64,000 nt of DNA from Candidatus Enterousia sp. (GTDB lineage: Bacteria > Pseudomonadota > Alphaproteobacteria > Rs-D84): positions 15,940 to 79,939 of the forward strand of contig JAZRLA010000002.1 in the NCBI GenBank assembly GCA_045646605.1, in the 5' to 3' direction. A model generated the notes under the pieces. It was given only the letters and a program-made list of their open reading frames with translations. It did not search any database and was not told the origin of the DNA. The first letter of the stretch is position 1, and every line of letters starts with the position of its first letter. Below, piece by piece: positions 1,620 through 59,950 of the stretch. A program made the translations under genes and the position numbers.

Positions 1620-4600
1620 ATGGCAGTTATCCAAAAATTAAGAAAATCTTTTGGTAAAAGTTTTTTGCAAACTCCGCTTCCTGATTTAATAGAAATTCAA
1701 TACAATTCCTACAAGGAATTCTTGCAGGGCGATGTTGCACCCCAAAATCGTAAAAACAAGGGGTTGCAAAGTGTATTTACTTCTATGTTCCCAATCAAGG
1801 ATTATGCGGGGGCCGCCGAATTGGAATTTGTTGAATACAATTTGGAAAAACCGGCGTATAACGTCAAAGAATGCCTTGCGCGGAAAATGACGTATTCAAG
1901 CAAGTTAAAACTTAAATTAAAACTGATTTTGTGGGATGTCGCCGAAGATGGCAAAAAGTCATTGCGCGATATCAAAGAACAAGAAATCTTTATGGGCGAA
2001 GTGCCACTTATGACCGAACGGGGCAGTTTTATTGCATCGGGCGTAGAGCGCGTCATTGTTTCGCAAATGCATCGTGCCCAAGGTGTTGTTTTCGCAACCA
2101 CCAAAGAGGCCAAAATTGCCGGAAATCCTATTACATATACCGCGCGTATAATTCCGGAACACGGTTCTTGGATTGATTTCGAAGAATCCAAGGGGGTTAT
2201 ATATGTTCGTATCGACCGTCGTCGTAAAATTCCGGCAACGGTTTTATTACGTTGCTTACCGTGTGCCGAAGACGAAAAGAAATGGGTGGCGGAACCGCGC
2301 AAACCGACAATTCGCGGAATGTCTGATACTGAAATTTTATCGGTGTTCTACAAACGTATCGCGCTTAATAACAACGGTAAATTGTGGGTTGGTGACACAT
2401 CCGTGTTCGAAGGTTTGGATAAATATCGTTTAAATTACGATTTGATAAACCCCAAGGATAAAAAAGAATTGGCGGCCAAGGGTGATCGTTTGAACGCAAA
2501 GCGCTTAGGCAAGATTATGACCGCATCAAAACAATTCGGTATTTTGCCGGATGCGTTGGTGGGTGAATATTTGTTTGACCCGATTATGTCCGCGGGCGAA
2601 GTGATTTACCCGTCGGGTACCGAAATCACCGAAGAGGTTTTGGCCGATATCGAAAAACTTGGTATCAAAGATATTTCTTTGATTTCGATTGATAACACAA
2701 CGATAACCGCACACATGCGTAACACATTAGTTGCGGATAAAACGACAAATCGTGAAGATGCGTTAATCGAAATTTATAATATCATCAGACCGGGTGAACG
2801 TCCAACATTAGAGGCGGCAATTAACTTGTTCATGCGTCAAGGATTCGAAGCGGCATATTATGATCTTTCGCCAGTTGGTCGATTCAAAATGAACAAACGT
2901 TTGAAAATTGATTCTGGGAAAAAGCCCGAAGACGAACGTTTGCTGACCAAAAACGATTTTCTTGCGGTGTTAAAAACTTTGACGAACATCATCGACCACA
3001 AAGACACGATTGATGATATTGATAACCTTTCAAATCGTCGTGTTCGTACTGTTGGTGAATTGTTGGAACAAAATTTCCGTACCGGTATGGTTCGTATTGA
3101 ACGTCTTGTGCGCGAAAGTTTGTCTTCGCCGAATATTGCAACAATGCAACCCCAAGATGTTGTCAATGTCAATCCGTTGATGTCATTGGTTGCGGAATTC
3201 CTTGGGACAAGTCAATTGTCACAGTTTATGGATGCATACAATCCTCTTTCGGAATTGGAACACAAACGTCGTATATCTGCGTTGGGGCCTGGGGGACTTA
3301 ATCGCGAACGTGCTGGTATTGATGTACGCGACGTTCATCCAACACACTATGGACGTCTTTGCCCAATTAACACACCCGAAGGTGCAAACATTGGCTTGAT
3401 TAACCACCTTGCGTCTTATGCGCGTGTGAATCCATACGGATTTATTGAAACACCGTATTATGTTGTAGAAAACAGTAAGATTACAGACAAGATGGTCTAT
3501 CTTACCGCGGACGAAGAACTGGGACACAAAATTGCCCAAGGTAATACCCCAACAAATGACAAGGGTGTTTTGACCGAAGAAATGGTTACCGCGCGTGTTG
3601 ACGGTGAATTTACACGTGTACCACGTGGCGAAATCGATTTAATCGACGTTGAACCGCGCCAGGTGGTGTCCATTTCGACCGGACTTATTCCATTTGTTGA
3701 AAACGACGACGCGAACCGTGCATTGATGGGTTCAAACATGCAGCGTCAGGCCGTGCCACTCATGCGGGTGCAAACACCACTTGTTGGAACGGGGATTGAG
3801 CGTGAGGTTGCACGCGATTCTCGTACGGGCAAGGTCGCAAAGCACAGTGGTATCGTTGAATCTGCGGACGCAAATCGTATTGTTGTAAAATGTATGAACA
3901 GCCGCAATGTTGTGACGGGTGTGGACATTTACAATTTGGAAAAATACGAACGTTCAAACAATGATACGATTTTACATCAAAAGCCATTGGTTCATGCGGG
4001 TGACCGTATATCCGCGGGCGATATCATTGCGGACGGTTCGTCAATGAACTATGGTGAATTGGCGTTGGGTCGCAATGTCTTGGTTGCGTTCGTGCCATGG
4101 CGCGGATATAACTATGAAGATTCCATTGTGATTTCCGAACGTATTTCGCGTGATGATGTTTTCACATCGGTCAAAATTGTGGAAAAAGAAATCAAGGTTC
4201 GCGATACACAATTGGGGCCTGAAAGCTTAACGCGCGACATTCCGAACGTTAGTGAAGAAGCGTTAAAGAATTTGGACGAATCCGGTATTATCTATATCGG
4301 TGCACGTGTGAAACAGGGTGATATTTTGGTTGGCCATGTATCGCCGAAATCTGAAACATTGCTTACCCCCGAAGAAGCGTTGTTGCGTAACATCTTTGGT
4401 GAAAAGGCATTGAATGTAAAGGATACATCACTGCGTGTTGGTCCGAACGAAGAAGGAACGGTTATCGGTGTGAACGTCCTGACCAGACATGGGGTCAAGA
4501 AAGATGAACGTACCCAAATGATTGAATTGGAAAAAATCGCCAAGATAAATAAAGATCGTGACGAAGAAATCCAAATCATGGAAAAAGGTTTCGCCGACCA

Positions 4601-5756
4601 AATCTTCCAAATTGCCGAAGGTCACACTATCGAAGCCGGTACGGGTAGTTTGAAACCGTTCATCGGTAAAAAATTAAACCAGGAAGTGTTCGAAGGTATA
4701 AGACCGGCCGATTTCAAAAAGTTGGTCATATCTAACAAGGAAGCCCAGGCGAAAATCGAAGAAATTCGTGATGTGCACATCTTGACTTTGAAACAGTTGA
4801 ATGAAAATGCCGATCGCGAAATCGAAAAGGCGACCGAGAGCAATTCGCTGAATGCCGGTGTTTTGAAAGAAGTCAAGGTTTACATCGCACATAAAATGAA
4901 ATTGCAACCGGGTGACAAAATGGCGGGGCGTCACGGAAACAAGGGTATCGTTTCACGCGTTGTTCCAATCGAAGATATGCCACATATGGAAGATGGAACA
5001 CCGGTCGATATTGTTCTGAATCCGCTTGGCGTGCCAAGTCGTATGAACTTTGGCCAGATTTTGGAAACCCACCTTGGTATGGCGGCGCGCACGCTTGGTG
5101 AACAGATTGGGGCTGTTTTGGACGAAGTTAAACAAAAACGTGCGGTGACCGACGACCTGCGCGCGATAATGGGCAAGATTTATGGCAAAGACATGGCGGA
5201 AAAATTGGCCAAGATGACCGATACGGATGTTCGTGCCAATGCCGCGTTGTTGCGTGATGGTGTGCCGATGGCAACACCGACATTTGACGGTGCGAATGCC
5301 GAAGATATTCGTCGCATGTTAAAATTGGCAAAATTGCCTGAAACAGGTCAGTTCACATTGTATGACGGTGTAACCGGTGAAAAGTTTGCGCGTCCGGTGA
5401 CCGTTGGTGTGATGTATATGTTGAAACTGCATCATTTTGTGGACGAAAAGATTCACGCACGTTCAACCGCAAGTTATTCACTGGTAACGCAACAACCATT
5501 GTCCGGTAAGGCACACATGGGTGGCCAGCGTTTGGGTGAAATGGAGGTCTGGGCACTGGAGGCACATGGTGCCGCGCACTTGCTGCGTGAAATGCTAACG
5601 GTGAAGTCGGACGATATTGTTGGCCGTAACAAGATGTATGAATCCATCATTTCTGGCAGTGACGATATTCAAACCGGCACCCCAGAGGCGTTTAACGTGT
5701 TCGTTCGCGAATTGCGTGGATTAGGCCTGGCAATGACACCAAAAAAAATTGACTAA
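1620..5756 (+). CDS. rpoB: DNA-directed RNA polymerase subunit beta
   Basis: 1378 aa with unmistakable RpoB motifs throughout. Start at ATG 1620 (MAVIQKLRKSFGK…); the ORF-track extension from 1533 is probably not translated. Confidence 0.95.
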   Translation: MAVIQKLRKSFGKSFLQTPLPDLIEIQYNSYKEFLQGDVAPQNRKNKGLQSVFTSMFPIKDYAGAAELEFVEYNLEKPAYNVKECLARKMTYSSKLKLKLKLILWDVAEDGKKSLRDIKEQEIFMGEVPLMTERGSFIASGVERVIVSQMHRAQGVVFATTKEAKIAGNPITYTARIIPEHGSWIDFEESKGVIYVRIDRRRKIPATVLLRCLPCAEDEKKWVAEPRKPTIRGMSDTEILSVFYKRIALNNNGKLWVGDTSVFEGLDKYRLNYDLINPKDKKELAAKGDRLNAKRLGKIMTASKQFGILPDALVGEYLFDPIMSAGEVIYPSGTEITEEVLADIEKLGIKDISLISIDNTTITAHMRNTLVADKTTNREDALIEIYNIIRPGERPTLEAAINLFMRQGFEAAYYDLSPVGRFKMNKRLKIDSGKKPEDERLLTKNDFLAVLKTLTNIIDHKDTIDDIDNLSNRRVRTVGELLEQNFRTGMVRIERLVRESLSSPNIATMQPQDVVNVNPLMSLVAEFLGTSQLSQFMDAYNPLSELEHKRRISALGPGGLNRERAGIDVRDVHPTHYGRLCPINTPEGANIGLINHLASYARVNPYGFIETPYYVVENSKITDKMVYLTADEELGHKIAQGNTPTNDKGVLTEEMVTARVDGEFTRVPRGEIDLIDVEPRQVVSISTGLIPFVENDDANRALMGSNMQRQAVPLMRVQTPLVGTGIEREVARDSRTGKVAKHSGIVESADANRIVVKCMNSRNVVTGVDIYNLEKYERSNNDTILHQKPLVHAGDRISAGDIIADGSSMNYGELALGRNVLVAFVPWRGYNYEDSIVISERISRDDVFTSVKIVEKEIKVRDTQLGPESLTRDIPNVSEEALKNLDESGIIYIGARVKQGDILVGHVSPKSETLLTPEEALLRNIFGEKALNVKDTSLRVGPNEEGTVIGVNVLTRHGVKKDERTQMIELEKIAKINKDRDEEIQIMEKGFADQIFQIAEGHTIEAGTGSLKPFIGKKLNQEVFEGIRPADFKKLVISNKEAQAKIEEIRDVHILTLKQLNENADREIEKATESNSLNAGVLKEVKVYIAHKMKLQPGDKMAGRHGNKGIVSRVVPIEDMPHMEDGTPVDIVLNPLGVPSRMNFGQILETHLGMAARTLGEQIGAVLDEVKQKRAVTDDLRAIMGKIYGKDMAEKLAKMTDTDVRANAALLRDGVPMATPTFDGANAEDIRRMLKLAKLPETGQFTLYDGVTGEKFARPVTVGVMYMLKLHHFVDEKIHARSTASYSLVTQQPLSGKAHMGGQRLGEMEVWALEAHGAAHLLREMLTVKSDDIVGRNKMYESIISGSDDIQTGTPEAFNVFVRELRGLGLAMTPKKID

Positions 5757-5852
5757 AGTGTTAGTGTAAGTGGTTAGTGGTTAGTAAAGAAATGCTAGCC
5801 GTCACTAACCACTAACACCGACCACTAACCACTAAGTAAGGAGCTTAGAAAA
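5757..5852. repeat. rpoB-rpoC intergenic inverted repeat built from GTGGTTAGTG/CACTAACCAC units
   Basis: …GTGTAAGTGGTTAGTGGTTAGT…GTCACTAACCACTAACACCGACCACTAACCACTAAG…. Imperfect long hairpin; the same unit recurs elsewhere in the window. Confidence 0.55.
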
Positions 5853-8800
5853 ATGGCAAATATGTTGCAAAAGATATTTGGACAAATCGAAACAAGGGAA
5901 CAATTTGATGCGTTGCGTGTGACAATTGCATCGCCGGAAGAAATCCTTTCTTGGTCCCATGGCGAAGTTACAAAGCCAGAAACGATAAACTATCATTCGT
6001 TGAAACCGGAACCGGATGGATTGTTCTGTCAAAAGATTTTTGGCCCCGTCAAAGACTATGAATGTGCATGCGGAAAATATAAAAGAATTAAATTCCGTGG
6101 CGTTATCTGTGAACGTTGTGGGGTCGAAGTTGGATCTGCATCTGTTCGTCGTGAACGTATGGGACATATCAAATTGGCGATGCCGGTTGCGCACACTTGG
6201 TTCCTGCGTGAAGGTAAGATTGCGACCCTGTTGAATAACCTGTCGCAAAAGAAATTGGAACAGGTTGTATCCTATGATGCATATATCGTTATTGAACCAG
6301 GGCTTACAAATCTTAAACAATACGATGTCATAAGCGAAGATGAATATCGTGCCGCGGTTGAAGAATATGGTCCGGATGCGTTCCGCGTTGGTATCGGTGC
6401 CGAAGGTGTACGCAGTATTATCGCAAACCTTGATATGGGCGATGAAAGAACACGTCTGCGCGCGGAATTGGCGGAAACAAAATCCGAAGCAAAGCGCAAA
6501 TCCATTATGAAGCAACTTAAATTAGTCGAAGCGTTCCTGGATTCAAAAACCGAACCGCAATGGATGTTGCCGGATATTATTCCGGTTATCCCACCGGATA
6601 TGCGACCACTTGTCACATTGGATGCGGGACATGTTGCGGCATCTGATTTGAACGATTTGTATCGTCGTGTGATTATTCGTAACAATCGTTTGAAACGGTT
6701 TATGGAAATGCATGCACCTGAAATTATCGTTCGCAATGAAAAGCGCATGTTACAAGAAGCCGTTGATTCATTGTTTGATAACGAACACAAAACGCGTCCG
6801 ATGGTTTCGCAAAATCGCCGTCCGCTTAAATCATTGTCTGGGTCATTGCGCGGTAAATCCGGTCGTTTCCGTATGAATTTGTTGGGTAAACGTGTGGATT
6901 ATTCCGGGCGCAGCGTGATTGTGTCTGGGCCATCATTAAAGATGCACCAGGTCGGTTTGCCAAAAGCGATGGCATTGGAATTATTTAAACCGTTCGTATT
7001 TGCACGTTTGATGGCGGGTGATTATGCCAATACATTAAAGACTGCACGTAAAATGGTTGAAAATGGTGAACCGGTGGTGTGGGATATTTTGGAAAAGGTC
7101 ATCCATGAACATCCGGTTTTGCTGAATCGTGCGCCATCTTTGCACCGTTTGTCGTTGTTGGCGTTTGAACCGGTTTTGATTGAAGGCAAGGCAATTCGTT
7201 TGCATCCGTTGGTTTGCAAGGGATTCAATGCGGACTTTGACGGTGACCAAATGGCCGTGCATGTTCCAATTTCATTAGAAGCCCAGTTAGAGGCACGCAC
7301 ATTGATGTTATCTACCAATAACATTTTGTCGCCGGCAAATGGTGAACCTATGACCGTTCCGTCACAAGACATGGTTTTGGGTATTTACTATATTTCGTTA
7401 ATGGATGGTGAACATACCGACAAATCTCCACGGTTTAGTGGTATGGACGAAGTTGAAATGGCATTGGAAAACAAGACAATTACACTGCATACCCCAATTG
7501 TTGCGCGTATCAATGGTAAAACATATAAAACAACCGCGGGTCGTATGATTATCGGGCAATTGTTACCAAAATCTGAAAATATGCCGTTTGATTTGGTGAA
7601 CAAGGTTATGGGTGAACCTGATATTCGTGCGTTACTTGCGACCACATACGAACGTTGCGGTGATAAAGCAATGATTCTGCTTGCCGATGCGTTAAAGAAT
7701 ACCGGGTTTGAACAGGCGGCGCGCAGTGGTATTTCAATTGGTTATGATGACGTTGTTATTCCCGAAGAAAAAGAAACAATGATTGCCGACACCGAAGAAG
7801 CCGCAAAGGATATCGAAGATCAATATCAAAACGGTTTGCTATCGGGTGGTGAACGTTATAACAAACTGATTGATTTATGGCAAAAAACAACCGATCGTCT
7901 TGGTGATTTGTCTTTCGCTGCGCTGGGTCGAAATCACGGTAACGATTGGAACTCTATCTATATGATGGCGGATTCCAAGGCACGTGGTTCGAAACGCCAG
8001 ATTCAACAGCTTGCCGGTATGCGTGGTATGATGTCAAAGCCGGACGGTTCGATTATCGAAGTTCCAATTATTTCGAACTTTAAAGAAGGCCTTACTATGG
8101 CGGAATACTTTACATCAACCCACGGTGCGCGCAAAGGTTTGTCCGATACCGCGTTGAAAACAGCGCAAGCGGGTTATTTGACGCGTCGTTTGGTTGATTT
8201 GGCATTAAACACCGTTATTACCGAACATGATTGTGGAACCAAGGAATATATTACCGCAAAGCCTGTATACCAAGGCAGCACACTTTCCGTTCCGCTTGGT
8301 AACGTTGTTTTGGGTCGCACCGCGGCACATGATATTGTCCATCCAATCACCAAGGAAGTTATCGTTCCGGCCGGCGAACTGGTAACCAAGGCCGCTGCAC
8401 GCAAGATAAACGAATCTGGTTTGCCAAGTGTTGATGTGCGCAGTGTTCTAACGTGTTGCAGTGATGGTTTGTGCGCAAAGTGCTATGGTATGGATTTATC
8501 GCGTCAATCACTGGTTCATGTTGGCGAAGCCGTCGGCGTTGTCGCAGGTCAATCCATTGGTGAACCGGGAACCCAATTGACATTGCGTACCTTCCACATT
8601 GGTGGTATCGCGTCCGGTGGAACCGAAAGTCATTATATAGAGGTTCCAGTCGCCGGTAAAATAAAGTTAATTGGTGTTAACACAATTAAAAATTCTGCGG
8701 GCCGCGTTGTTGTCCTTTCCCGTAATGGCAAGGTCGTGGTTGAATCACCATCTGGTGAAGAATTATTTAGTTGCGGTTTGCCGTATGCATCTATGTTGAT

Positions 8801-14266: not shown

Positions 14267-14420
14267 GTGTTGATTATATCAATTTGCATTTTTCGTCGCA
14301 AGCTAAAATAGGAAAAGACATAATTCCCAAAAAGTTTTTTTTAGAATGTGTATGCATTTTTCACTTGCCTTAAATTTTGATTAAATGGTAAACTTTCCGT
14401 AAAGGAAGGAAGAATTTACC

Positions 14421-17400
14421 ATGAAACGACTTGCTATATTTATTGGTGGCCTGTTTGTGTTGCCCGCATTTGCTGAGGTTGCGCCCGTTTTCGTTACGGA
14501 TGAAGGCGCACTTGAATATGCGGATTTGATGTACGATGAAAATGGGTTTTTGATAATTCCTGATACAGAAATTGTTGAAGAAACGGACGAAGTGGACGAA
14601 CAAAAATCGCAAACGCCCGTAAAAATTTCGCGTGTGCCAACCGGTGCAACGCCGACCGCGAATCGTTCAACGGCATCGCGTGCGGTGCCTGCGTCGGGCC
14701 GAACGAATAATACATCGGGTCGTGGTTCAAATGCGGGCAATTCATCGCGTGTTGTTTCGGCACGTACGACAACCGCCACGCCGCGTGCAAATGCATCGCG
14801 CACGGTTGCATCACGTGGAACGGTTGCGTCGCCACGTACGGGAACGGCCGCGACGACATCAACGCGTACGACATCGAATACCGCGGCAACAAACGCGGCG
14901 GCGGCACGTGCAACGGGTGGTTCGGCCCGGTCGACCGCAACAACTGGTGCAAATGTTGCACGAACCGGAACAGTTGCGCGGACGGCAACGACGACGCGTG
15001 CGGGAACTGCGCGTGCGGCGACGGCAAAATCATCGACTGTTTCGCGTGCGGCAACAACGGACACATCGCGTCCATCGGTGCGTGGAAATATTGATGTTGG
15101 TGCGGGGGTAAAGGCCGGTGCAACAATCACGGCATCGAACGGAACTGTCACATTAGTGGATTCGAATAGAAGTCTTTATAACGCATCTGCGGTTCGTCGC
15201 GCGCCAACTGTTCGCATGTCTGCGTTAAAGGATACGACTGAATCAACAATAACCATGTCGATGGAGGATATGGATGATTTGGCGGAAATGACCGATTACT
15301 GCAAGGCACAATACGCATCATGTATGGATAATTATTGTAATGTCTTGGACGATAACCAGGGCCGGTGCAGTTGCAGTGCGAATTTAAAGAATTATGCCAA
15401 GGCCGAACAGGCGTTAAAAACCGCAACCGAAGAATTACAGGACGTTGCGCAAAAAATCCAATACATCGGTCTTACCACGCGTGAGGTTGAAACCCTGTTC
15501 ACCCAGACCGAGGCTGAATTGGCAATGCAATCCAAAACGGATACCAGCCAACTTCAGGCGAGTCTTGATAAAATCAAGGACATGATAATCGATGTTAAAA
15601 CCGGCAACACGACCAGCAGTGGCAACACCGACCTTTTTGGTCTGAATTTTGATTTGTCGGGCCTTTTGGAATTTTCGTTCGACAGTACTGGTTTTGACCT
15701 TGGGTCGCTTTTTGGTATGTCCAACACGAACAGTGTTAGCAACCAACGCGGCGAAGAACTGTTCAAAACCGCAACGGCGCGTTGCAAAACATCGGTGTTA
15801 AAGGCATGCACGGCGCGTGGTGTTGATGCGTCACTTGTCACAAACGCATACGATTTGGAAATTGATCGTGAATGCATCGCGTACGAGCGCAGTTTGAATG
15901 ATTCCAACGACCAAATGATTGCGACGGTTCGTAATGCAAAGAACGTTTTGCAAAAGGCGCGCCTTATGGTTGCGCAACAGAAAAACGCCTATGACCTGCG
16001 CGGATGTATCAACGCCCTGGACGAATGTATGCAGGATGAATTTGTCTGCGGTTCGGAATATGAAAATTGCCTTGACCCGACGGGCCGTTATATCGTGAAC
16101 GGTGAAATCGTGGTGGGCAGTCAACCCGGCCACGCCATTGACCCAGATTTACCGCAAAATGTCGCAAGTGTGATGACCAGTGACGTTTGCCGCGTGAACC
16201 TGTATCGGACATGGGACGTTGAACCCGGTGTATGCACACCGCACACCGTGGATGATGCATACAGCACATATGTTCAATATCCAACCGCGGACCAAGGCAA
16301 CGCCTGGGGCAGTGGTAATGAAAACGACAACCTTGTATATTATATTGAACAAACGGTAAAAACCGGCGCCGCGCACACGGCAAGTGAAAATATGTCGAAA
16401 TACTTGCAAAACAAAATCGGCTATATCGACAAAAAGGACGGCCGCGCGCACGGTATGTGCATATCGGTCCTTAACAAATGCCAAGATTATAGTTACGATG
16501 GCAAGGGCACATCCGCCAGTTACAAGGAAGACAACGACGTCATCAAACAATACCTTGGGCGCGTTTTGGTCCAGATCAAGGCGAAACAGGATGAAATCCT
16601 TGCAAACTATGCCGAAACATGTGTAACGGACGTCACATCGTGCCTGTCACAGAACGGGTACCCGACCGAGGATCCAACGGAATGGGGCGACGGCGACCCA
16701 AACTCACTTGAATACACGCAAAACATTGTAAAACAAAACATTGCGGTAAACGCCTGCCGGGCGCAGGTTGTAACCTGTATGTCCGTGAACGGCTATTCAA
16801 TCAGCACCCCAACCCCAACGGAAATGAATTGCTGGGTCCAAGGTTTGCTGTATAACTACACAACCGAAGATTGCATGTTTGAAACCAACACCACACATTC
16901 GTGCAGTTCTAGTACGCCTGGGTGGTGTTATAATAAGACCGCCTGTGAGGATGTCGGTGCCAACTGGTGCGGCAGTTCATGTCAACAACAGGAATGTTCC
17001 TGTTCGACACAAAACCCGGGCTCTTGCACCGAAACGGAATGCAAGGCAAAGACCGGCTTGTTCTGGTGCACGAATAATGGCGGTTCTTGTATGACCAGTA
17101 ATTCGCAATGCAGATATACTGTGAACATTGCGTGTGGAAGTGGTTCGACCGCTGCAAGTAGCAACCCCACCAGTAGCAACGTAATGCACGGCAATTCTGT
17201 GCAACTAAATAATGCATGGTGTAATGCAAGCAGCGATTACACATTTATTGGGTGGACTTGTACTGGTGGTTCGGTTGATAGCAGTGGAAAGTATTACCCA
17301 ACACACACTGGAACCACATGTACAGCAAACTTTAGATATGTATCCCCCGACACACCAAAATATTCCGTAACCCTTAACTGTGGCAATTCTTGTACCTATA

Positions 17401-18578
17401 ATTCGCGTGGATATAGTGGTACTTCGTTACCTCAGGGTACATCGCTTACTGTTCCAACTTGCAACAATGCTGTAAACGAGACGGTAGAATGGTCCTGTCA
17501 ATCGGATTCTACAATCACTGCTGGTCAGATTAATGGTGGAAATAGCCTATCTGTAACCGGGAAAGTCAACTGTACCGCACAATGTTCAACCCCTGGTACT
17601 GGCGATGAAATTAGTGTATGCATCGATTGTGGAATTAACACTTTTGTGAGCGACAAGATTAACACTATATCTGTTGGCTCCAAAGCATCCGCCTCGTTGC
17701 CATATACAGAAACTAGTAGTTCGGTTACTTTGTCATCATTTACATCTGGTGATGGGATTGAATTTGATAAAGGAATATGCAAATGCAGTGATGGTAGCAG
17801 CCCAACGGGATGGTGGGCAAACGACAGTACCCAAGGCATATCGGTGGGTAGTGACGGTAAGATTACAATGTCAAATATAACCGCAGACACAACCTTTACC
17901 CCAATATGCTCCACCGGCACCACGGACGGCACCACAATTGTGCAGATTTCATGCCCCGCCTCTTCTTGGGCAACACTTAACACTAATTTCTTCAGCAATT
18001 ATCCTGGAGATATAATAGCAGGCAATGTATATAAACAAGAAAACGTGACATCTTCAACGTTCGCGTTGGATAAGGATATGTGCGCTTGTAAGTCAGGGGA
18101 TACTATTAAAAATTGGATAAATAGTAACGGTGGTTTAGTCGGGGGTGTTAGCGGTGATTATGGCACGACAAATGCTATCTTAAAAACAGGCCAACTCAAT
18201 ACATTTATGCCGTATTGTCCGTCGGATTGGGTAACGTTGAATTTGAACTATAACAACGGTTCAACATCGCAAGGGCATCTTTACATTGATAGAAATCGTA
18301 CATGTCCAAATTTCTATACAAGTAATAGCATAACCCAATTACAATATTGCCCGTCTATAGTTCCCGACAGCAAAATCACCGTTCCAACCAAAGATAATTG
18401 CACGTTTGGTGGGTTCAAGGATAGCAGTAACAATACGTGGATAAATACCGAAGGTAAAATACAATTATCTGTTCTAAACTATGCTATTCCATCGACGGGC
18501 AACAGTATAACATTAACCGCACAGTGGGATTGCGGGTCCAGGCCGGTTTATATCCCCGTTGACGTTGAAGGTGACTAA
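14421..18578 (+). CDS. Giant secreted Cys-rich surface protein (1385 aa)
   Basis: Signal peptide MKRLAIFIGGLFVLPAFA. A ~180-aa Arg/Thr/Ala/Ser low-complexity tract, then an acidic segment, then a long Cys/Asn/Thr/Gly-rich region. AAGGAAGG RBS. Confidence 0.8.
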   Translation: MKRLAIFIGGLFVLPAFAEVAPVFVTDEGALEYADLMYDENGFLIIPDTEIVEETDEVDEQKSQTPVKISRVPTGATPTANRSTASRAVPASGRTNNTSGRGSNAGNSSRVVSARTTTATPRANASRTVASRGTVASPRTGTAATTSTRTTSNTAATNAAAARATGGSARSTATTGANVARTGTVARTATTTRAGTARAATAKSSTVSRAATTDTSRPSVRGNIDVGAGVKAGATITASNGTVTLVDSNRSLYNASAVRRAPTVRMSALKDTTESTITMSMEDMDDLAEMTDYCKAQYASCMDNYCNVLDDNQGRCSCSANLKNYAKAEQALKTATEELQDVAQKIQYIGLTTREVETLFTQTEAELAMQSKTDTSQLQASLDKIKDMIIDVKTGNTTSSGNTDLFGLNFDLSGLLEFSFDSTGFDLGSLFGMSNTNSVSNQRGEELFKTATARCKTSVLKACTARGVDASLVTNAYDLEIDRECIAYERSLNDSNDQMIATVRNAKNVLQKARLMVAQQKNAYDLRGCINALDECMQDEFVCGSEYENCLDPTGRYIVNGEIVVGSQPGHAIDPDLPQNVASVMTSDVCRVNLYRTWDVEPGVCTPHTVDDAYSTYVQYPTADQGNAWGSGNENDNLVYYIEQTVKTGAAHTASENMSKYLQNKIGYIDKKDGRAHGMCISVLNKCQDYSYDGKGTSASYKEDNDVIKQYLGRVLVQIKAKQDEILANYAETCVTDVTSCLSQNGYPTEDPTEWGDGDPNSLEYTQNIVKQNIAVNACRAQVVTCMSVNGYSISTPTPTEMNCWVQGLLYNYTTEDCMFETNTTHSCSSSTPGWCYNKTACEDVGANWCGSSCQQQECSCSTQNPGSCTETECKAKTGLFWCTNNGGSCMTSNSQCRYTVNIACGSGSTAASSNPTSSNVMHGNSVQLNNAWCNASSDYTFIGWTCTGGSVDSSGKYYPTHTGTTCTANFRYVSPDTPKYSVTLNCGNSCTYNSRGYSGTSLPQGTSLTVPTCNNAVNETVEWSCQSDSTITAGQINGGNSLSVTGKVNCTAQCSTPGTGDEISVCIDCGINTFVSDKINTISVGSKASASLPYTETSSSVTLSSFTSGDGIEFDKGICKCSDGSSPTGWWANDSTQGISVGSDGKITMSNITADTTFTPICSTGTTDGTTIVQISCPASSWATLNTNFFSNYPGDIIAGNVYKQENVTSSTFALDKDMCACKSGDTIKNWINSNGGLVGGVSGDYGTTNAILKTGQLNTFMPYCPSDWVTLNLNYNNGSTSQGHLYIDRNRTCPNFYTSNSITQLQYCPSIVPDSKITVPTKDNCTFGGFKDSSNNTWINTEGKIQLSVLNYAIPSTGNSITLTAQWDCGSRPVYIPVDVEGD

Positions 18579-18600
18579 AATTTTATAAACCTAAGGAAAC

Positions 18601-21600
18601 ATGAACATGAAAAAGACTTTTATTTATTCAATCTGTGGATGTTTTGTAACCGGTGTGGCGACCGCGACCACATATTGGCTAAACATTATTCCAAATACAT
18701 GTACGGGGCACACAATATGCCTTACCCAGCCCACGGATGGTTCATGTTGTTCCGCAAACGATACCATTGAAAAATTTCCTGTTGCCTCTGGATCCAAAGG
18801 CGGCACCATTTCCCTGGGGTCCCGCAATATTGCAATATTTGATGCGACCGGTACGCCAACAACGTTTACCAACGAAAATATTCGTAATTCATTGATAAAC
18901 GCCACATCAAATGGAAGTCACCTTAGTGTTACAAAAATTCCCGCGGACACAACATTGGTATCCGTCACGGTTAATATGCAGGGCGGTTCATTACCCCTTG
19001 GGTTTACGGGTAACACGATGGCGATGGAACCGGGCGATGTAATCCTGTCTGCGGGCGTTACGCGTGCCGATGGTGCCAATTTGGCCGGATTTTATAAATC
19101 GGGTCAATCGCCGTCCACCGCAACATCAATTATAACCGTTGATAGCACACCAAGCCAAACATATATCGCAAAGTGGGAATGTGGCGAAGGTTTGGAAATG
19201 AATTCAAAGGGAACATGTATAAGTTCGAATACCGTTTATATGAAATCGGATGGTACGGTAATGGACCCCAATGAAATCGATATTAAATCCGGCGGTTCCA
19301 ATGGTTGCACTTTGTTGACCAAGGGCAAGGTTCATTTGTACGATTATAACCCAACTGCCCCCGATGATTTAAAGAATAATATGTATTATTATATGTATCG
19401 TGATGGTCCCAATGGTTCCTATGATAATAATATAATATATCGGCCATATTCGGACAGTGATCATAATCCATATATGGGAACTATTGTTACGTTAAACAAT
19501 ATATCCCAGGTTCAAAACTACAATTATTTACATACCGGAAGTCCGAACAATGGTGTAACACTGTATTGTCGTAGTAATGGATGCTGGTGGTCCGAACAGG
19601 GTGCCGAGTTACCCATGGTGGTATATCACACCAGTTCACAAAATGATTGTACGTGGTGCGGGTCCGATTGTACAATGTATACATATCCAAATAACGGCCA
19701 AACAATCTACTATTGGCAATGCCCTTGCATAAAGGCCTATGACGTCCCGGGCGAGGGCGAATGCGTCCCCGCATATCTTGGATGTACATATTTACCCCAG
19801 GTAACAGAAGATGGAACCACAGAAATGGTATGTGTACCACAAGGACAATATTCGGCCGCACATACCGAAGATTTAGTATGGGGATTACGTCAGCCAAAGG
19901 CAATCGGGTGGACTTTCCGCGGCTATTATCTTTCAAATACTGATGCAGACCTGTATACAACCGAAAATACAAATGTGGGCGCACCCGTAAATGGTTTCGG
20001 CACAGGAAACCCGAACAATCGGGAAAAAGTAATAAACATTACATCTCCAATCGCTGTATGTGGTACAAGTGGGCAAACGGCATATGAAATCACTCTTTAT
20101 GGTGCGTGGGCCAAAAACTGTAATCCTAGCGATCATGCGACATGTAATATGTCAATTAATGGCGTGGGCGCAAGTCCGTCATCTTATGGAACCGGCGACG
20201 TGTATTACAGCGCGTCATGCCAAAACGGGTACAATATAGAAAGCGGATCCGGAACGTATAATCCGGTGTGCAGTACGGATGTATCGGGTTCTGTGGACCT
20301 TAATTACAAATTTATAAATCAATACGGAAATTATATCAAGAAAAACAACAGCATGTACACTGTTGAGAACAGCTGTTCGTACGGGCAAGGATACACACTT
20401 TTAAGTGCGACCAGTTTCACCAACGCCCTTGGCACCGGGTATAGTTTGCGTTATTTAAAGATTGGTACTGGCAGTAATGGTTCATATTTTACCCAAAATT
20501 ATGGCCTTGGCTGTAGTACAAACGTGTTTGGCGCCGATGTAAATTCGGTCGATGTTACCGGGTACGTTTGCGACGAATGTGTGCCAGAGAACGGAACCTG
20601 TGTTGATGTCGATTACAGCCCATCTATACAATATCCCACCAGTGGTTCCGCACATCAAACCGCCACGTTGTGGGGTGCAAACACTAATAAAGGCTATACG
20701 GCATGCAAGAAATTAAGTTGTGCAGAGGGATACACCCTGCGGCAAAATGAAGCCACCGGTCACATGTATTGTGCACAAGAATGTGAACCCGGTAAAACGT
20801 TTCTTGATGGTGAATGTCGTACACCTTATGAGGCTTGCATATATAATTGTCAGCAAAACCAAGACCCGTCTAAGTGCGGCAGCAATTTAACAGATTTTTC
20901 AAGCTATTGCAGCACCGAAACATTTGTGTGTCCACCTTTAAACGCTCCAACGGGTCTTAGTATTACAAATGTGGCCAAGACAAACAGCCCCAAAGAATGC
21001 AAATATACGGTTGATTGCGCCAATGGTATCGGTACAGTATACGAAGGGGGACAGATGATCCATACCCAAGATAATGAGCTACATATATGGACAAGCAATA
21101 CTACGTCTGATTATATCCATTATAATGATGATGGCTCGGTTACGGTTACCTGTACTGATACAGACTGCAAACAAGAAAAGCTGAGTAATTTAAAGTGTCT
21201 GATTTGTCCGGCTTATAACGGGTCAGATACTACTGTAACTGTTCATAACCCGACGCGGAGCGATAAAAATCGCACCTGTTCATATAACATTAGCTGTAAA
21301 GCTACAGTGGTCCCAAGAATATTATTGAAAAAACGCGCAAGAAATGATAGCTGTTATGTGTGGAATGAGACTGATGAACCCAACTACTGTGCAATCGACA
21401 ATATTGACGCTGATTCTACGGATACTTTTACACCGACGGATACGGTTACATGCACGGCCAACCAATGTACGGCCGGTTATATGAGCACTCCTTACCACTT
21501 CTTGTCCACCGAATTTGCGAAATATAAATGTATACATACCAGCGCCTTCAGTTGCCCAACAATTAGTGGAAACAGCGGGGTAGCCGTCACAAAACGGCTA

Positions 21601-21900
21601 GGAACAGGCGAACAATGCACATACACATTGTCGTGCAATAATACTTCTCAAGTTCCGTATAGTGGTGGAGCACGCCCCAGTAGCAACTCTCCCACTGCAG
21701 TGACAATTTCTTGCGATGGGGTGGATGGATACAGCAATGCACCTTGCGTGGCGAGTTATTTAACCAGTAAGATACAAGCGTATATCTGTGGAGATACTCC
21801 GGGCTCTGGTGGTTCTGGGGATTCTGGTGATTCCGGCGGTACGGGTAGTGATGAAGGCGATATAGGTTCTGGTACCTCCGGTGGCACCCAAAGCAATTAA
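18601..21900 (+). CDS. Giant secreted Cys-rich surface protein (1099 aa), tandem to the previous one
   Basis: N-terminal hydrophobic signal. Cys/Asn/Thr/Gly/Tyr-rich throughout. C-terminal Gly/Ser/Asp tail (GSGGSGDSGDSGGTGSDEGDIGSGTSGG). 22 bp after the upstream gene. Confidence 0.8.
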   Translation: MNMKKTFIYSICGCFVTGVATATTYWLNIIPNTCTGHTICLTQPTDGSCCSANDTIEKFPVASGSKGGTISLGSRNIAIFDATGTPTTFTNENIRNSLINATSNGSHLSVTKIPADTTLVSVTVNMQGGSLPLGFTGNTMAMEPGDVILSAGVTRADGANLAGFYKSGQSPSTATSIITVDSTPSQTYIAKWECGEGLEMNSKGTCISSNTVYMKSDGTVMDPNEIDIKSGGSNGCTLLTKGKVHLYDYNPTAPDDLKNNMYYYMYRDGPNGSYDNNIIYRPYSDSDHNPYMGTIVTLNNISQVQNYNYLHTGSPNNGVTLYCRSNGCWWSEQGAELPMVVYHTSSQNDCTWCGSDCTMYTYPNNGQTIYYWQCPCIKAYDVPGEGECVPAYLGCTYLPQVTEDGTTEMVCVPQGQYSAAHTEDLVWGLRQPKAIGWTFRGYYLSNTDADLYTTENTNVGAPVNGFGTGNPNNREKVINITSPIAVCGTSGQTAYEITLYGAWAKNCNPSDHATCNMSINGVGASPSSYGTGDVYYSASCQNGYNIESGSGTYNPVCSTDVSGSVDLNYKFINQYGNYIKKNNSMYTVENSCSYGQGYTLLSATSFTNALGTGYSLRYLKIGTGSNGSYFTQNYGLGCSTNVFGADVNSVDVTGYVCDECVPENGTCVDVDYSPSIQYPTSGSAHQTATLWGANTNKGYTACKKLSCAEGYTLRQNEATGHMYCAQECEPGKTFLDGECRTPYEACIYNCQQNQDPSKCGSNLTDFSSYCSTETFVCPPLNAPTGLSITNVAKTNSPKECKYTVDCANGIGTVYEGGQMIHTQDNELHIWTSNTTSDYIHYNDDGSVTVTCTDTDCKQEKLSNLKCLICPAYNGSDTTVTVHNPTRSDKNRTCSYNISCKATVVPRILLKKRARNDSCYVWNETDEPNYCAIDNIDADSTDTFTPTDTVTCTANQCTAGYMSTPYHFLSTEFAKYKCIHTSAFSCPTISGNSGVAVTKRLGTGEQCTYTLSCNNTSQVPYSGGARPSSNSPTAVTISCDGVDGYSNAPCVASYLTSKIQAYICGDTPGSGGSGDSGDSGGTGSDEGDIGSGTSGGTQSN

Positions 21901-21977
21901 CCCGATCCGCGGGTGGCGGATGTTCAAATTCACATTAACCGGCAAAGGGGAAACAAAAACGCGGTATCTGCATCGGG

Positions 21978-22200
21978 TTGCAGAGAATCGTCACCCCGCC
22001 GAAGGGCGGGGCCCAGGCCGAGCGTAGCGAGGACTTGCTCCGCAGGATTCTGAAACAAGTTCGAAATGACGATTTACTTGATGTCTGCGACGCAAGTTTT
22101 TACTTTCGCAAAAACTGGATCCCGGCCTTTGCCGGGATGACGGCGTTCTGGGAATTTGGCATAAAACACGGGCGCGAACGCGCCCGCACTAACCACTCAC
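21978..22200. repeat. Mosaic GC-rich hairpin repeat, instance B1
   Basis: Modules GTCACCCCGCCGAAGGGCGGGG, CCAGGCCGAGCGTAGCGAGGAC, GTCTGCGACGCAAGTTTTTAC…, GATCCCGGCCTTTGCCGGGATGACGGCGTTCTGG, then a GGGCGCGAACGCGCCC hairpin and CACTAACCACTAAC units. Shares modules with B2, B3 and B4. Confidence 0.6.
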
Positions 22201-22208
22201 ACTAACCA

Positions 22209-22499
22209 CTAACACTTGCGTGATACCCTTTCACGAAACTCTGCGCATGGCCGGAAAGAAACAACCCGTCGCGCCGTTACAATTGCCACCTCTCCGGTTT
22301 TTGGGTTGCGACCCACGCGTGCCGATTTATCCAAAATCTTGAATGTGCCGAAACCGGCAAACTTTACTTCTTCGCCATTTATTAATGATTCACATATTTC
22401 ATCAAATATTAAATCAATCAGTTTTCCTGACTGCGACGCCGTAAAGCCAAACTTGTCGCGCAATGTTAACGCCAAATCATTCCTTGTTATCGTTGCCAT
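22209..22499 (-). CDS. hup: HU/IHF-family DNA-binding protein
   Basis: 96 aa. …GFGTFKILDKSARVGRNPKTGEVAIVTARRVVSFRP… is the typical HU arm. Confidence 0.85.
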   Translation of the reverse strand: MATITRNDLALTLRDKFGFTASQSGKLIDLIFDEICESLINGEEVKFAGFGTFKILDKSARVGRNPKTGEVAIVTARRVVSFRPCAEFRERVSRKC

Positions 22500-22824: not shown

Positions 22825-22857
22825 ATATCAAAATCAAAGATTAAAATATACCTGCGT

Positions 22858-22933: not shown

Positions 22934-22938
22934 AAGAA

Positions 22939-23280
22939 ATGGATTTTATTATGAAAAATCGCGCTGTGAAAATTGGAATTATTGCCGGAATTTTGCCACA
23001 CATGTTTTGCTGTGTGTTGCCGGTTGTGTTGGGATTGGTGGGATTGGTTGCGCCAGGCGTATTGGATCATGACTTTATACCACACGATGCGGAAAAATGG
23101 CTGTTTGTGTTTTCCGGATTAATGTTGTGTTTGTCTTGGATTATGTATTTTTCAAATCGTGAATGTAATTGCGAACACTGTGACGCGACGCATCATCACC
23201 GCGTGCAAATGATAATTTTGGTTTGTATAACGATTTTGACGGTCGGCGGAATTGTTGCGCATTTGTTTTTGCACCACTAA
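22939..23280 (+). CDS. Small Cys/His-rich integral membrane protein (113 aa)
   Basis: Three or four predicted TM segments with CC, CNCEHC and HHH motifs. Immediately 3' of the tRNA-Arg. Confidence 0.5.
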   Translation: MDFIMKNRAVKIGIIAGILPHMFCCVLPVVLGLVGLVAPGVLDHDFIPHDAEKWLFVFSGLMLCLSWIMYFSNRECNCEHCDATHHHRVQMIILVCITILTVGGIVAHLFLHH

Positions 23281-26444: not shown

Positions 26445-27977
26445 ATGATGAAAAGGGGAATAATATCTTTTTTACCGGCGTTGTGGGCCAGTTTTGCTGC
26501 ATTGGCGGCGAATGAAGGTGTGCCGGTTTATTACCAAGATGCGCCGGCAACTAACGCAAATCAGTCGAGTTATGGTGCGTATGCTGATAACGGTTATACA
26601 AAGTATGTTGGAAAGTCTGGTGAAAAACAGGTTGTGGGTACCCGTACGTATTCTTATACAACTGAAAAACGAAATCGTCCAACCCCAAGTATTGAAGAAT
26701 ATGCCGAAAATATCGGCTATGTTGGTGCTGGAACCATGACGGTAAATGGTGTCGGTTTGGCACCGGAACAGGAACGTTCAACACACTTTTATGCCGGATA
26801 TACACGTCGCTTTGCAAATTTTGAATTTAAGTCGGGTGTGAATTCAATACTTGAATGGGATGACATGATTTTTAATGAAATAAATGTTGGTGCCCGTCAT
26901 GTGTTTTCCTTTGGTAATTTTGATATGTTCGGTTTTGCCGATTATGCGTACGGTAAAATGTCAAATGGTGGGCTTTCCATGGATTACGATTTGGAACCAT
27001 ATGATTGGTCGGATCCAGAGTACGGAATTTTCACAATTTCAATGGGGGGACAATCCGGTGATTCGCATCATTTACGCCTTGGAATCGGGGCAAAGCATAT
27101 TTGGAACGTTGGTGGATGGAAATTTTCACCGGTGATTGGATACGAAATTTTCAAACACAATTTGGAAATGTCTGACCATTTATATCCAAACCAGGGAATT
27201 TATTTACCGCTTATGACAAATCTTGGTGAATATGTTTATGGAAATACAGAAGGGGAGTATTATTCATTACCAATTGACGTGTTGCCACCCGATGATTGGT
27301 ACCAGGTTTGTATGGGCCCCGAAGATATAAAAGTTGTGACACAAAGCGGAACATCAATGGGATATGCAACGTATCTTGGTGATGTTTTGCATACAATGGA
27401 TTATGACGAAGAAACGATGGGATACTTGCCTTGGGGTGTTTATGGTGGTGATTGTGTTATTATTGGGGGCGACGGACCGATAAAGGTTGGCGGACTTACG
27501 CACATATATAACACAACATGGAGTGGTTTCTATTTTGGTCTAGAAATAGAAAAACAAATGACACTTGCGGATAAATTGCGTCTGTATTTTCAAGTTGGTA
27601 TGCCAAAGTATTCATCCGAAGGTATATGGCCGAATCGTACGGATTGGCAACAAAACCCAAGTTTTTTGGATGAAGGAACAAATGGTTCCTATACATACGC
27701 GGCGGAATTGGAATATGATGTTCGTATCGCACCGCGGTTACAGTTGGCCTTAAAAGTTGATACGAATTTCTTTCATATTGGAAAGATACCTGGAAAACTT
27801 TACGTTGCCGAATATACTGAATTTGTAATGGATGAAAACGGTCAATATGTACTTGACGGAAATGGGTTACCATATCTACAAACGGTTCCCGCACATACCG
27901 AAGACGTGCAAGAATCATTAAAGTATGCAGATTGGCAATCGTTTGGCGTGCACCTAGGGTTTAAATATTCATTCTAG
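26445..27977 (+). CDS. Outer-membrane beta-barrel protein (510 aa)
   Basis: Signal peptide (…ASFAALAANE). Alternating amphipathic strands rich in Gly/Tyr. C-terminal …GFKYSF. Confidence 0.6.
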   Translation: MMKRGIISFLPALWASFAALAANEGVPVYYQDAPATNANQSSYGAYADNGYTKYVGKSGEKQVVGTRTYSYTTEKRNRPTPSIEEYAENIGYVGAGTMTVNGVGLAPEQERSTHFYAGYTRRFANFEFKSGVNSILEWDDMIFNEINVGARHVFSFGNFDMFGFADYAYGKMSNGGLSMDYDLEPYDWSDPEYGIFTISMGGQSGDSHHLRLGIGAKHIWNVGGWKFSPVIGYEIFKHNLEMSDHLYPNQGIYLPLMTNLGEYVYGNTEGEYYSLPIDVLPPDDWYQVCMGPEDIKVVTQSGTSMGYATYLGDVLHTMDYDEETMGYLPWGVYGGDCVIIGGDGPIKVGGLTHIYNTTWSGFYFGLEIEKQMTLADKLRLYFQVGMPKYSSEGIWPNRTDWQQNPSFLDEGTNGSYTYAAELEYDVRIAPRLQLALKVDTNFFHIGKIPGKLYVAEYTEFVMDENGQYVLDGNGLPYLQTVPAHTEDVQESLKYADWQSFGVHLGFKYSF

Positions 27978-32778: not shown

Positions 32779-33636
32779 TCAATATCTATTTGTACGATTT
32801 GTCCATCCGTTGCCATATTTATCCCATCCGGGTAAATCCTTTAAGTATTCTATTCTGTTATCTTTTAAATCTTGCATAAAATCATCGATTTTATCGGTTG
32901 GAATACTGTTTAGTGCATCTATGGTTTTATCACCAATTTTCCCATCAACTTTTAAATTTTCGCCCATTGAATCATTTAGTATTTCTTGGACAAGTTTACC
33001 AACGTTTCTGAAATTACTCATAACACCCATATCAAATATAGCATTTGCAATACGGTCATCTTCTATATCACTAATACGACGGTCATCGTAGAAATTTTCC
33101 CCGTATATTTGTCTTGCCTGATTATTTGTTAAATCTTTTACCGCGTCCGGAAAGTTAAAGTCAGGGTGTTCCGTGTTATATTTATTTAGTGTCGGTTGGG
33201 TTATGCCAGAATTTGTGGGTTGGTCTATCTTATTTGGGTTATCAACATATCCGCCTTCTTCCGCCATAGTTTTACGAATTATATTTTGCTTTCGTTTATC
33301 AACGATCGGGTCATCATTATCATCCAGTTCTAGTTCTTCTATCCAACAACGGCAATTTAGATGATGTGGATGTTCCGGGATATCTTCTTCAGTTTCATAA
33401 ATAGTGCCGGAAAAACTTAGGCAATCATCACAAGTTTTTTCATCTTTTTCTGTATGCCAACACCACGCTCTTCTTATTGTTATACTGCGTCCGGTTGCAT
33501 CAATCGTGCTGTTGCCATATTTATTTTCGAAATAATTTTGAACTCGTCTTGTAACATTTTGGTGTTCTGGATTGCTAGAATTTGCATACGCATCACTTTG
33601 CATAAGGTTTAATATATTTTCTGGTATTTTGTTCAT
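32779..33636 (-). CDS. Mu F-like N-terminal segment fused to GH108 lysozyme and a PG_binding_3 peptidoglycan-binding domain
   Basis: N-terminus …TCDDCLSFSGTIYETEEDIPEHPHHLNCRCWIE… (HPxxNCRC signature of the Phage_Mu_F/SPP1 gp7 family). Middle …EEGGYVDNPNKIDQPTNSGIT…LTNNQARQIYGENFY… (GH108). C-terminus …DGKIGDKTIDAL…GWDKYGNGWTNR (PG_binding_3). Confidence 0.7.
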   Translation of the reverse strand: MNKIPENILNLMQSDAYANSSNPEHQNVTRRVQNYFENKYGNSTIDATGRSITIRRAWCWHTEKDEKTCDDCLSFSGTIYETEEDIPEHPHHLNCRCWIEELELDDNDDPIVDKRKQNIIRKTMAEEGGYVDNPNKIDQPTNSGITQPTLNKYNTEHPDFNFPDAVKDLTNNQARQIYGENFYDDRRISDIEDDRIANAIFDMGVMSNFRNVGKLVQEILNDSMGENLKVDGKIGDKTIDALNSIPTDKIDDFMQDLKDNRIEYLKDLPGWDKYGNGWTNRTNRY

Positions 33637-37904: not shown

Positions 37905-37983
37905 GTTGTCATTTTAAGACATTTTTTATATGCGTTCAACCTTAAAATGTGATATAATCGTTTCGAAAGATTTAAAAAATGCG

Positions 37984-38784: not shown

Positions 38785-38790
38785 AAGCCA

Positions 38791-58107: not shown

Positions 58108-58240
58108 GGTAAATACGTCATCCCGCGGTATCGGGCCCCGCAAAATTTGAAAAATTTTGTGGGTGATGACAGGCGGGATCTTGTGGTTTCAACTATAATA
58201 ACAAGATACCGCCTTTCGGCGGTATGACGTTTTACTCTTT
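58108..58240. repeat. Mosaic GC-rich hairpin repeat, instance B3
   Basis: CGTCATCCCGCGGTATCGGGCC…GGGTGATGACAGGCGGGATC…GATACCGCCTTTCGGCGGTATGACG shares modules with B2. Between convergent glyQS and 58232..59917. Confidence 0.5.
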
Positions 58241-59917: not shown

Positions 59918-59950
59918 TTGGCCCCCCAATCAGACCACATGGTTAAATCC

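Follow-up and report, generated by a model that had tools for sequence, protein, structure and literature searches.

Two adjacent genes of Candidatus Enterousia sp. (order Rs-D84), designated here A (14421..18578, plus strand) and B (18601..21900, plus strand), encode large Cys-rich proteins that are probably cell-surface recognition proteins rather than enzymes or parts of a general envelope lattice. They lie in a 64,000-nt stretch of contig JAZRLA010000002.1, referred to below as the window, and all coordinates are window positions. Protein A is modular, with a conserved N-terminal part, a variable C-terminal part, and a sharp boundary between the two, and one type of repeat, resembling the Flg_new repeat (PF09479), occurs in three domains, two of them in A and one in B. 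In the model that we favor, a conserved stalk or anchor carries a diversifying adhesin-like tip, with B as a co-located variable partner, for the recognition of a partner cell or host; we regard this model as evenly balanced between right and wrong. We also hold, with moderate confidence, that both proteins are exported to the envelope or surface and that the gut alphaproteobacterium encoding them has a reduced genome and probably depends on partners.

Layout, conserved module, and hypervariable island of the gene pair

The two open reading frames (ORFs) are separated by 22 nt and start with signal-peptide-like sequences, as an earlier note on this DNA had proposed. The signal peptides were assigned by eye, and both carry A-x-A sites, with LPAFA preceding EV in A and VATA preceding TT in B. 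The spacer contains AAGGAAA ahead of the start of B; the public record of B (P0121) has 1097 aa and starts two codons downstream. No terminator-like site was found between A and B, and, given this and the 22-nt gap, the two genes are apparently co-transcribed.

Protein A contains 57 Cys residues (4.1%) and protein B contains 58 (5.3%), which gives a total of 115, slightly below the more than 120 counted in the earlier note. Relative to a background of 1.36% Cys, the mean of the other ORFs of the window, both proteins are 3- to 4-fold enriched, and the enrichment was significant in a Poisson test (P of ~1e-12 for A and ~2e-17 for B). Residue counts agreed with the description of both proteins as rich in T, S, G, and N (and Y), and the Arg/Thr/Ala/Ser tract, the acidic Phe/Gly/Leu segment, and the Gly/Ser/Asp tail pointed out earlier were all present (Table 1). 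The term "tandem pair," also used in the earlier note, holds for the position of the genes but not for their relationship: outside one common repeat type A and B show no detectable paralogy, and they are not equivalent, A being conserved over aa 1-810 while its C-terminus and the whole of B are hypervariable. Scans of both proteins with Pfam, NCBIfam, PHROGs, and PADLOC gave nothing above noise, the family scans detected no domain of a toxin, nuclease, deaminase, or peptidase, and searches of PDB sequences with A, B, and an A-core profile returned no match.

Relatives of A were recovered as 312 matches among 185,579 species genomes scanned, and the best 80 of the 312 were used for the comparison of loci. 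These 80 loci all come from rumen or gut metagenome-assembled genomes (MAGs) labeled Candidatus Enterousia, Alphaproteobacteria, or "Rickettsiales," and a positional orthologue of A was present in every one of them (80/80), divergent from a PLD-family gene in 76. Homologue coverage of A is complete from aa 1 to ~810 and collapses beyond. Of two counts of homologue clusters, one gave at least 597 and the other at least 1,199 (clusters at 90% identity). The family's typical length is 685 to 800 aa, and its named members are all listed as "hypothetical protein" of Alphaproteobacteria MAGs (gut or rumen). The A core is an uncharacterized, order-restricted family that is not assignable to a fold or to a known family.

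The conserved module was modeled by AlphaFold2 (AF2) as almost purely helical, with a mean predicted local distance difference test score (pLDDT) of 60.5 and values of 70 to 88 at core residues 310-531. All 18 core Cys residues are invariant (100%) in 230 homologues at 51 to 80% identity; their spacing is often Cx6C, with a C-x6-C-x6-C-x6-C run at aa 529-550. The Phe/Gly/Leu segment is 79 to 91% identical in close relatives (L001-L009 and L015) and 55 to 74% identical in more distant loci; its beta-amphipathicity is high (z = 3.1, rank 12 of 1372 sequence windows), and its pLDDT in the AF2 model is 28 to 33. The Arg positions of the Arg/Thr/Ala/Ser tract are conserved. Three overlapping ORFs of 159 to 256 aa, in other frames and on both strands (14381..15151), cover this tract, and we take them to be stop-free by-products of its low-complexity codon content and not genes. 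No silent cassettes or paralogues of A or B, the latter having been proposed for checking in the earlier note, were found within the window. Tandem duplicates of the A family exist in some other species. These core-only copies (L073, 2231..4465 and 4567..6789; P0163 and P0178, J6R52_01410 and J6R52_01415) are ~740 aa long each and 58% identical, so the conserved A module can duplicate in place.

The backbone on both sides of the pair is syntenic. Two ORFs of rpoB and rpoC size, plsX, and the PLD-family gene lie upstream of A, and an M13 peptidase gene, a radical SAM gene, and a porin-like gene with a match to the Protochlamydia outer-membrane-protein family lie downstream of B; rpoB and rpoC were named from their length and position and are 86 to 97% identical to the ORFs in the same place in related loci. 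In relatives with rpoC 96 to 97% and the PLD gene 92 to 95% identical, the identity was 76 to 88% for the A core but only 24 to 38% for A beyond aa 810 and 22 to 50% for B. In blastn comparisons with six close relatives, the alignment ended at nt 16837-16882 (A codons ~806-820) and returned at ~22183, with flanks that were 73 to 89% identical, and the only exception inside this island was a pair of 65 to 69% patches in the B-like gene of L002. Loci of the same strain had identical islands. Among loci whose core DNA is 92 to 96% identical, only 24 to 75% of the next 4.5 kb could be aligned, a pattern of mosaic replacement and not of gradual drift.

The extent of A varied together with the genes behind it. 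Within the close rumen clade, A reaches 950 to 1,850 aa, and one to three signal-peptide genes rich in Cys (4 to 6%) come after it. In distant species, A consists of the core alone and has no B-like gene downstream. A B-like gene accompanied 22 of the 27 extended forms of A and none of the 50 short forms (0/50), an association that is confounded by phylogeny. In more than 20 species the variable ORFs have kept their length, their reading frame, and their Cys residues, and the frame disruptions in relatives that the earlier note named as a sign of pseudogenes were not seen. As to how the island diversifies, neither repeats of at least 25 nt nor repeats like those of diversity-generating retroelements involved the variable region within positions 14000-23000, no reverse transcriptase was among the annotated genes of the window (part of its ORFs were scanned), and neither silent cassettes nor an invertible promoter was found within the window. 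No metagenome contig of the same species was found; the closest contig has an A core that is only 80% identical.

Table 1. Window coordinates of genes A and B, their parts, and the variable island
Feature	Position	Strand	Remarks
Gene A	14421..18578	+	1385 aa; secreted-type, modular; N-terminal 810 aa conserved, C-terminal 575 aa variable
A signal peptide, aa 1-18	14421..14474	+	MKRLAIFIGGLFVLPAFA; read from sequence; kept in family consensus
A acidic tract, aa 19-68	14475..14624	+	Net charge -13; 67-79% identity in close relatives
A Arg/Thr/Ala/Ser low-complexity tract, aa 69-262	14625..15206	+	24 Arg, net +23, Cys-free; 53-60% identity in close relatives
A conserved core, aa 280-810	15258..16850	+	Alpha-helical
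A acidic Phe/Gly/Leu segment, aa 401-455	15621..15785	+	Within core; hydrophobic/polar alternation
A Cys-dense linker, aa 811-894	16851..17102	+	12 Cys in 84 aa; island start; relatives 27-38% identity or no match
Two Cys-stapled Flg_new-like (Listeria-Bacteroides repeat) domains of A, aa 895-976 and 977-1060	17103..17600	+	Found with seeded profile
Remaining variable C-terminus of A, aa 1061-1385	17601..18578	+	24-35% identity to relatives
Gene B	18601..21900	+	1099 aa; probable start 18607; secreted-type, beta-rich, multidomain, hypervariable
Flg_new-like (putative beta-grasp) domain of B, ~aa 113-197	18937..19191	+	
Best-conserved part of B family, aa 429-720	19885..20760	+	Invariant Cys; GWTFRGYY and YGAWA motifs
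B Gly/Ser/Asp tail, aa 1064-1099	21790..21897	+	AF2 low confidence
Hypervariable island, ~5.3 kb (A C-terminus, B, intergenic)	16883..22182	.	Syntenic backbone on either side

Flg_new-like repeats in A and in the B family

The Flg_new domain is beta-grasp-like, and its carriers are fast-evolving adhesin-like proteins typical of gut-associated microbes (PMC9723798). Known carriers (InlB with its B-repeat, and proteins of gut Methanomassiliicoccales and Methanimicrococcus) have in common tandem repeats of ~70 to 85 aa with the pattern Y-T-V-x-(Y/F)-N...G(Y/W)TFxGW...LYAxW. In the A family, PF09479 proper occurs directly after the core in the homologues P0009, P0016, and P0045 (27.9 to 34.3 bits, cut-off 27). 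A repeat profile seeded only with such Pfam-validated domains of A homologues and iterated on the family (first- and second-round relatives) matched aa 895-976 of A with an i-E value of 1.9e-8 (28 bits) and aa 977-1060 with 6.5e-5, both before A itself had entered the profile. Three further repeat-like matches in aa 1061-1385 are weak and unproven (i-E values of 0.04 to 2.3). In B, comparison of the B-family alignment with the repeat profile by hhalign assigned ~aa 113-197 to the same type with a probability of 94 to 96% and an E value of ~1e-8 over the full model length. Flg_new repeats picked by eye in isolated segments were not confirmed by Pfam, and only the three domains named, resting on the transitive profile or hhalign, hold. 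The statement of the earlier note that the proteins have no recognizable adhesin domain is therefore correct at Pfam and NCBIfam thresholds and does not hold once the transitive profile (for A) and hhalign (for B) are taken into account.

The repeats of Enterousia have four conserved Cys columns, and 147 of 155 of them contain an even number of Cys residues, mostly 4 or 6, which fits intradomain disulfides. To our knowledge, the canonical Flg_new domain has no conserved Cys. The Cys-bearing repeats account for much of the Cys-richness of the proteins, and structural disulfides would be in keeping both with these even numbers and with the 18 invariant Cys residues of the core. Judged from sequence, the variable half of A amounts to a Cys-stapled form of an adhesin-type repeat that is already known, found here in an uncommon host and as part of an uncommon fusion. 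Likenesses to the known carriers are secretion in gut microbes, fast evolution, and the presence of PF09479 proper in A homologues, and they may extend to the beta-grasp fold class (InlB B-repeat, PDB 2y5p). The repeats of the window differ in scoring below the Pfam thresholds, in their Cys positions, in being fused to a large orphan helical Cys-rich module and not to leucine-rich repeats, sortase, PGF-CTERM, or S-layer anchors, and in belonging to a diderm alphaproteobacterium.

The remainder of B could not be matched to the repeat profile: no other segment was supported by hhalign, the best-conserved part of the family (aa 429-720) gave no significant score, and aa 415-510 were rejected as a repeat in spite of the GWTFRGYY motif (hhalign probability of 2 to 6%). 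AF2 modeled B as a series of beta-rich domains (pLDDT 66.9), for which Foldseek retrieved nothing significant from PDB. The Gly/Ser/Asp tail is encoded in part by a 9-nt tandem repeat at 21805-21833. An exhaustive HMMER search of 1.84 billion proteins with a B-family profile (E <= 1e-3) yielded 38 representatives, compared with 3 relatives in a word search alone, and B is 25 to 41% identical to the genes occupying the same slot in more than 20 relatives.

Flanking genes and other features of the window

The window carries LptE, Lgt, and the porin-like gene, as expected of a diderm envelope, and also a lytic transglycosylase (SLT) and an anaerobic ribonucleotide reductase. The apparent gap after B contains a gene for a 96-aa HU/IHF-type DNA-binding protein (22209..22499, minus strand; PF00216, E value of 2.6e-23), overlapped by a spurious 115-aa plus-strand ORF. 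Its DNA is conserved in 55 loci (79 to 85% in close relatives and ~67 to 78% in more distant ones) with clear codon periodicity. A structured RNA had been considered for this conserved block of ~330 nt and was rejected because the mismatches show 3-base periodicity and the minus strand encodes the HU/IHF-type protein; in the stretch after B, a tRNA was all that Rfam and ARAGORN detected. A ~165-nt element with internal GC-rich palindromes, present as partial copies at 21978-22141, 22627-22796, and 61204-61335 (73 to 81% identical), flanks the HU/IHF gene with two of its copies at the right edge of the island. It has few matches in related loci (L006 and L025) and may be a small dispersed repeat of the MITE or REP type.

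Beside the tRNA, tRNA-Arg(CCT) at 22858-22933, lies a conserved gene for a 113-aa membrane protein (22939..23280, plus strand) without a Pfam family. The protein has seven Cys residues, two of them adjacent (CC) within a transmembrane stretch (HMFCCVLPVV), and carries the motif CNCEHCDATHHH at its C-terminus. The gene is present in 58 of the 80 loci, near the A locus where inspected, and some loci (L010, L012, and L016) have it in the opposite orientation along with the tRNA and the HU/IHF gene. The motif is reminiscent of metal or thiol handling of the MerT/MerF type. Farther downstream, a 510-aa signal-peptide protein (26445..27977, plus strand), found in 42 of the 80 loci, matches the Protochlamydia outer-membrane-protein family PF17251 (E value of 1.2e-10) in its C-terminal part only.

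Three more ORFs, which the earlier note grouped with A and B, are indeed Cys-rich: 43564..44838 (plus strand, 5.2% Cys), 48376..49185 (minus strand, 4.8%), and 50739..51428 (minus strand, 7.4%). The grouping itself found no support in sequence, since none of them resembled A (including its C-terminus), B, or one another. None matched Pfam or PHROGs; the first starts with a hydrophobic anchor and the second with a signal peptide, and 50739..51428 has neither. The other signal-peptide proteins of the window are Cys-poor, and Cys-richness is thus not general to the exported proteins of the organism. Further orphan proteins without a Pfam family are encoded at 58232..59929, 59951..61075, and 61478..62548 (all minus strand, with signal-peptide-like N-termini) and at 37930..39960 (plus strand), which fits the published remark that Rs-D84 genomes encode many uncharacterized envelope proteins. 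In an otherwise housekeeping region, the ORF at 32779..33636 (minus strand) joins a GH108 lysozyme domain to a peptidoglycan-binding domain and a weak Phage Mu F-like stretch; its product may be a muramidase of phage origin.

Possible roles of A and B

Bacteria of Enterousia (Rs-D84) have genomes below 1 Mb (reported as 750 to 1,015 kb) and lack flagella, the tricarboxylic acid (TCA) cycle, respiration, and standard transporters, and an obligately partner-dependent lifestyle was predicted for them (PMC12306168). In our preferred reading of a stalk with a diversifying tip, the conserved module of A would serve as an anchor or stalk, held by intramolecular and possibly also intermolecular disulfides, and would present the variable repeat array outward. 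The ligand of the array and of the apparently co-transcribed B would be variable and would sit on a partner cell, a host surface, or a substrate, the even-numbered conserved Cys residues would form disulfides stabilizing the exposed domains, and the array would be diversified through mosaic recombination under selection. The host- or partner-interaction role that the earlier note suggested fits the hypervariability and the adhesin-type repeats.

Several observations weigh against this reading. A Sec signal peptide takes A and B only as far as the periplasm and so does not imply surface exposure, and no beta-barrel, lipobox, or known secretion-system gene that could serve translocation across or anchoring in the outer membrane was recognized in the window. 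PF09479 itself does not match the proteins of the window, at E <= 1 for full-length A and B or at E <= 10 for isolated segments; the i-E values of the repeat profile are generous because its database held only ~190 sequences; and of the many domains of B only one has been assigned. The disulfides are deduced from the numbers of Cys residues, and conditions in the habitat are strongly reducing. The divergence of the island could in part reflect relaxed constraint rather than positive selection.

An alternative proposal gives the conserved A module a role in the periplasm or in envelope housekeeping, for example as a tether or scaffold between envelope layers, with the C-terminal extension and B as dispensable additions that drift under weak constraint. 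Most members of the A family, being core-only proteins of 685 to 800 aa without a B gene, would fit such a role, as would the presence of a Sec signal only, with no outer-membrane export device found in A, B, or the genes of the window; the basic disordered tract could bind peptidoglycan or lipopolysaccharide (LPS) phosphates. The state of the variable ORFs, intact, long, and Cys-conserved in more than 20 species with no frame disruptions seen, argues otherwise, and a sharp boundary with mosaic replacement is typical of selected surface loci and not of decay. A genome of this size is also unlikely to carry 5 kb of dispensable coding sequence, and we consider the proposal decidedly doubtful. 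The same variability bears on the idea of a disulfide-cross-linked envelope layer, put forward in the earlier note, in which A and B would stiffen the surface through intermolecular disulfides like the chlamydial OmcA/OmcB/MOMP complex. The chlamydial proteins are likewise Sec-exported, Cys-rich envelope proteins of a reduced-genome, host-dependent diderm, and the high and conserved Cys content, the odd Cys number of mature A (57), which leaves room for an intermolecular bond, the heptad-spaced Cys run at aa 529-550, which would sit on one face of a helix, the universal conservation of A as a high-investment gene in a genome reported to be below 1 Mb, and the nearby match to the Protochlamydia family all favor it. 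However, A and B resemble neither the Cys-rich proteins of chlamydiae nor any family in Pfam or NCBIfam; the A core is helical; a hypervariable half with a lineage-restricted partner is not expected of a uniform structural lattice; and the even Cys numbers of the repeats fit intradomain pairing. In addition, peptidoglycan genes are retained (SLT in the window, and RodA, MreB, and MrdA in Rs-D84 according to PMC12306168), and no Dsb genes were seen in the 64-kb window, the only stretch examined for them. On these grounds, a cross-linked layer appears unlikely.

The layout of A and B, with a constant N-terminus that passes sharply into a variable C-terminus and a downstream gene that varies with it, also recalls polymorphic toxins or contact-dependent effectors. 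In these, a conserved module delivers a variable C-terminal effector and the next gene encodes its cognate partner, which would fit an organism that probably depends on, or is antagonistic toward, other cells. The C-terminal toxin domain and the small cognate immunity gene of CDI, Rhs, or MafB systems were nevertheless not found here: no toxin domain was detected, the variable part is built of binding-type, presumably beta-grasp repeats, the downstream gene encodes a 1,099-aa secreted multidomain protein unlike a small cytoplasmic immunity protein, and there are no orphan cassettes in the window, all of which makes this explanation very improbable. We find it scarcely credible that A is an oligomeric membrane-inserting conduit or pore in which the Phe/Gly/Leu-Asp segment forms a beta-hairpin and thereby a barrel in the outer membrane of the cell itself or in the membrane of its partner. 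The segment is among the best-conserved parts of A, has the beta-amphipathic pattern (z of 3.1), and is modeled with low confidence in the AF2 monomer; A also has long helices and a coiled-coil-like stretch at aa 308-391 (weak coiled-coil matches), and metabolite uptake via intercellular connections was proposed for Rs-D84 (PMC12306168). This case is purely pattern-based, though, and another segment of A (aa 214-232) scores higher for amphipathicity, several Asp residues lie on both faces of the segment, and no homology to any pore-former or secretin was found.

Known display systems offer likenesses of architecture. Like A and B, the S-layer proteins Campylobacter fetus Sap and Caulobacter RsaA and the receptor-binding fibers of phages have an attachment module that is conserved and, past a sharp junction, a distal part that varies along with the next gene; they differ in that no homology to them and no PHROG matches were found and that neither silent cassettes nor an invertible promoter was found in the window. 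Typical S-layer proteins contain little Cys and leave the cell through type I systems without a signal peptide, whereas A and B have 4 to 5% Cys, and Pfam found no SLH or other known S-layer anchoring module in them. Nor did Pfam reveal a beta-barrel translocator, a TPS domain, or a TpsB partner of type V secretion in A, B, or their neighbors, and the A module is predicted to be almost entirely helical. Giardia variant-specific surface proteins (VSPs) and the immobilization antigens of ciliates are variable exposed proteins of anaerobic protists with high Cys and Thr/Ser/Gly/Asn-rich composition from a gut habitat, and their resemblance to A and B is a lead only: they are eukaryotic, have CXXC-based motifs and a membrane anchor, and are not expected to be homologous.

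A bolder form of the stalk-and-tip model would make the A core the base of an undescribed contact apparatus specific to the Rs-D84 lineage, an oligomeric, disulfide-laddered helical stalk inserting in the outer membrane via the Phe/Gly/Leu hairpin without a known type V or other display system, with the recombining island (the A tip and B) setting the specificity for partner cells; we put it forward as a rather improbable speculation. What gives the locus its interest is that Rs-D84 (Enterousia) bacteria are widespread in rumen and gut and are thought to live off other cells. The A-B locus takes up ~7.5 kb, or ~1% of the genome if the size is within the reported 750 to 1,015 kb, and it joins a sharply delimited, mosaic, hypervariable stretch of adhesin-type repeats to a Cys-rich exported module, the only one in this analysis to be conserved across the order, which makes it a concrete candidate for an attachment or specificity determinant. 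It may also serve as a strain-typing marker and as a model for studying the production and stability of disulfide-rich proteins under strongly reducing conditions. Two uncharacterized families are defined by this work, one for the A core, with at least 1,199 clusters, and one for B, with 38 representatives, and, while no new principle is claimed on the present evidence, the locus provides an experimental handle on the partner contact of reduced-genome gut bacteria.

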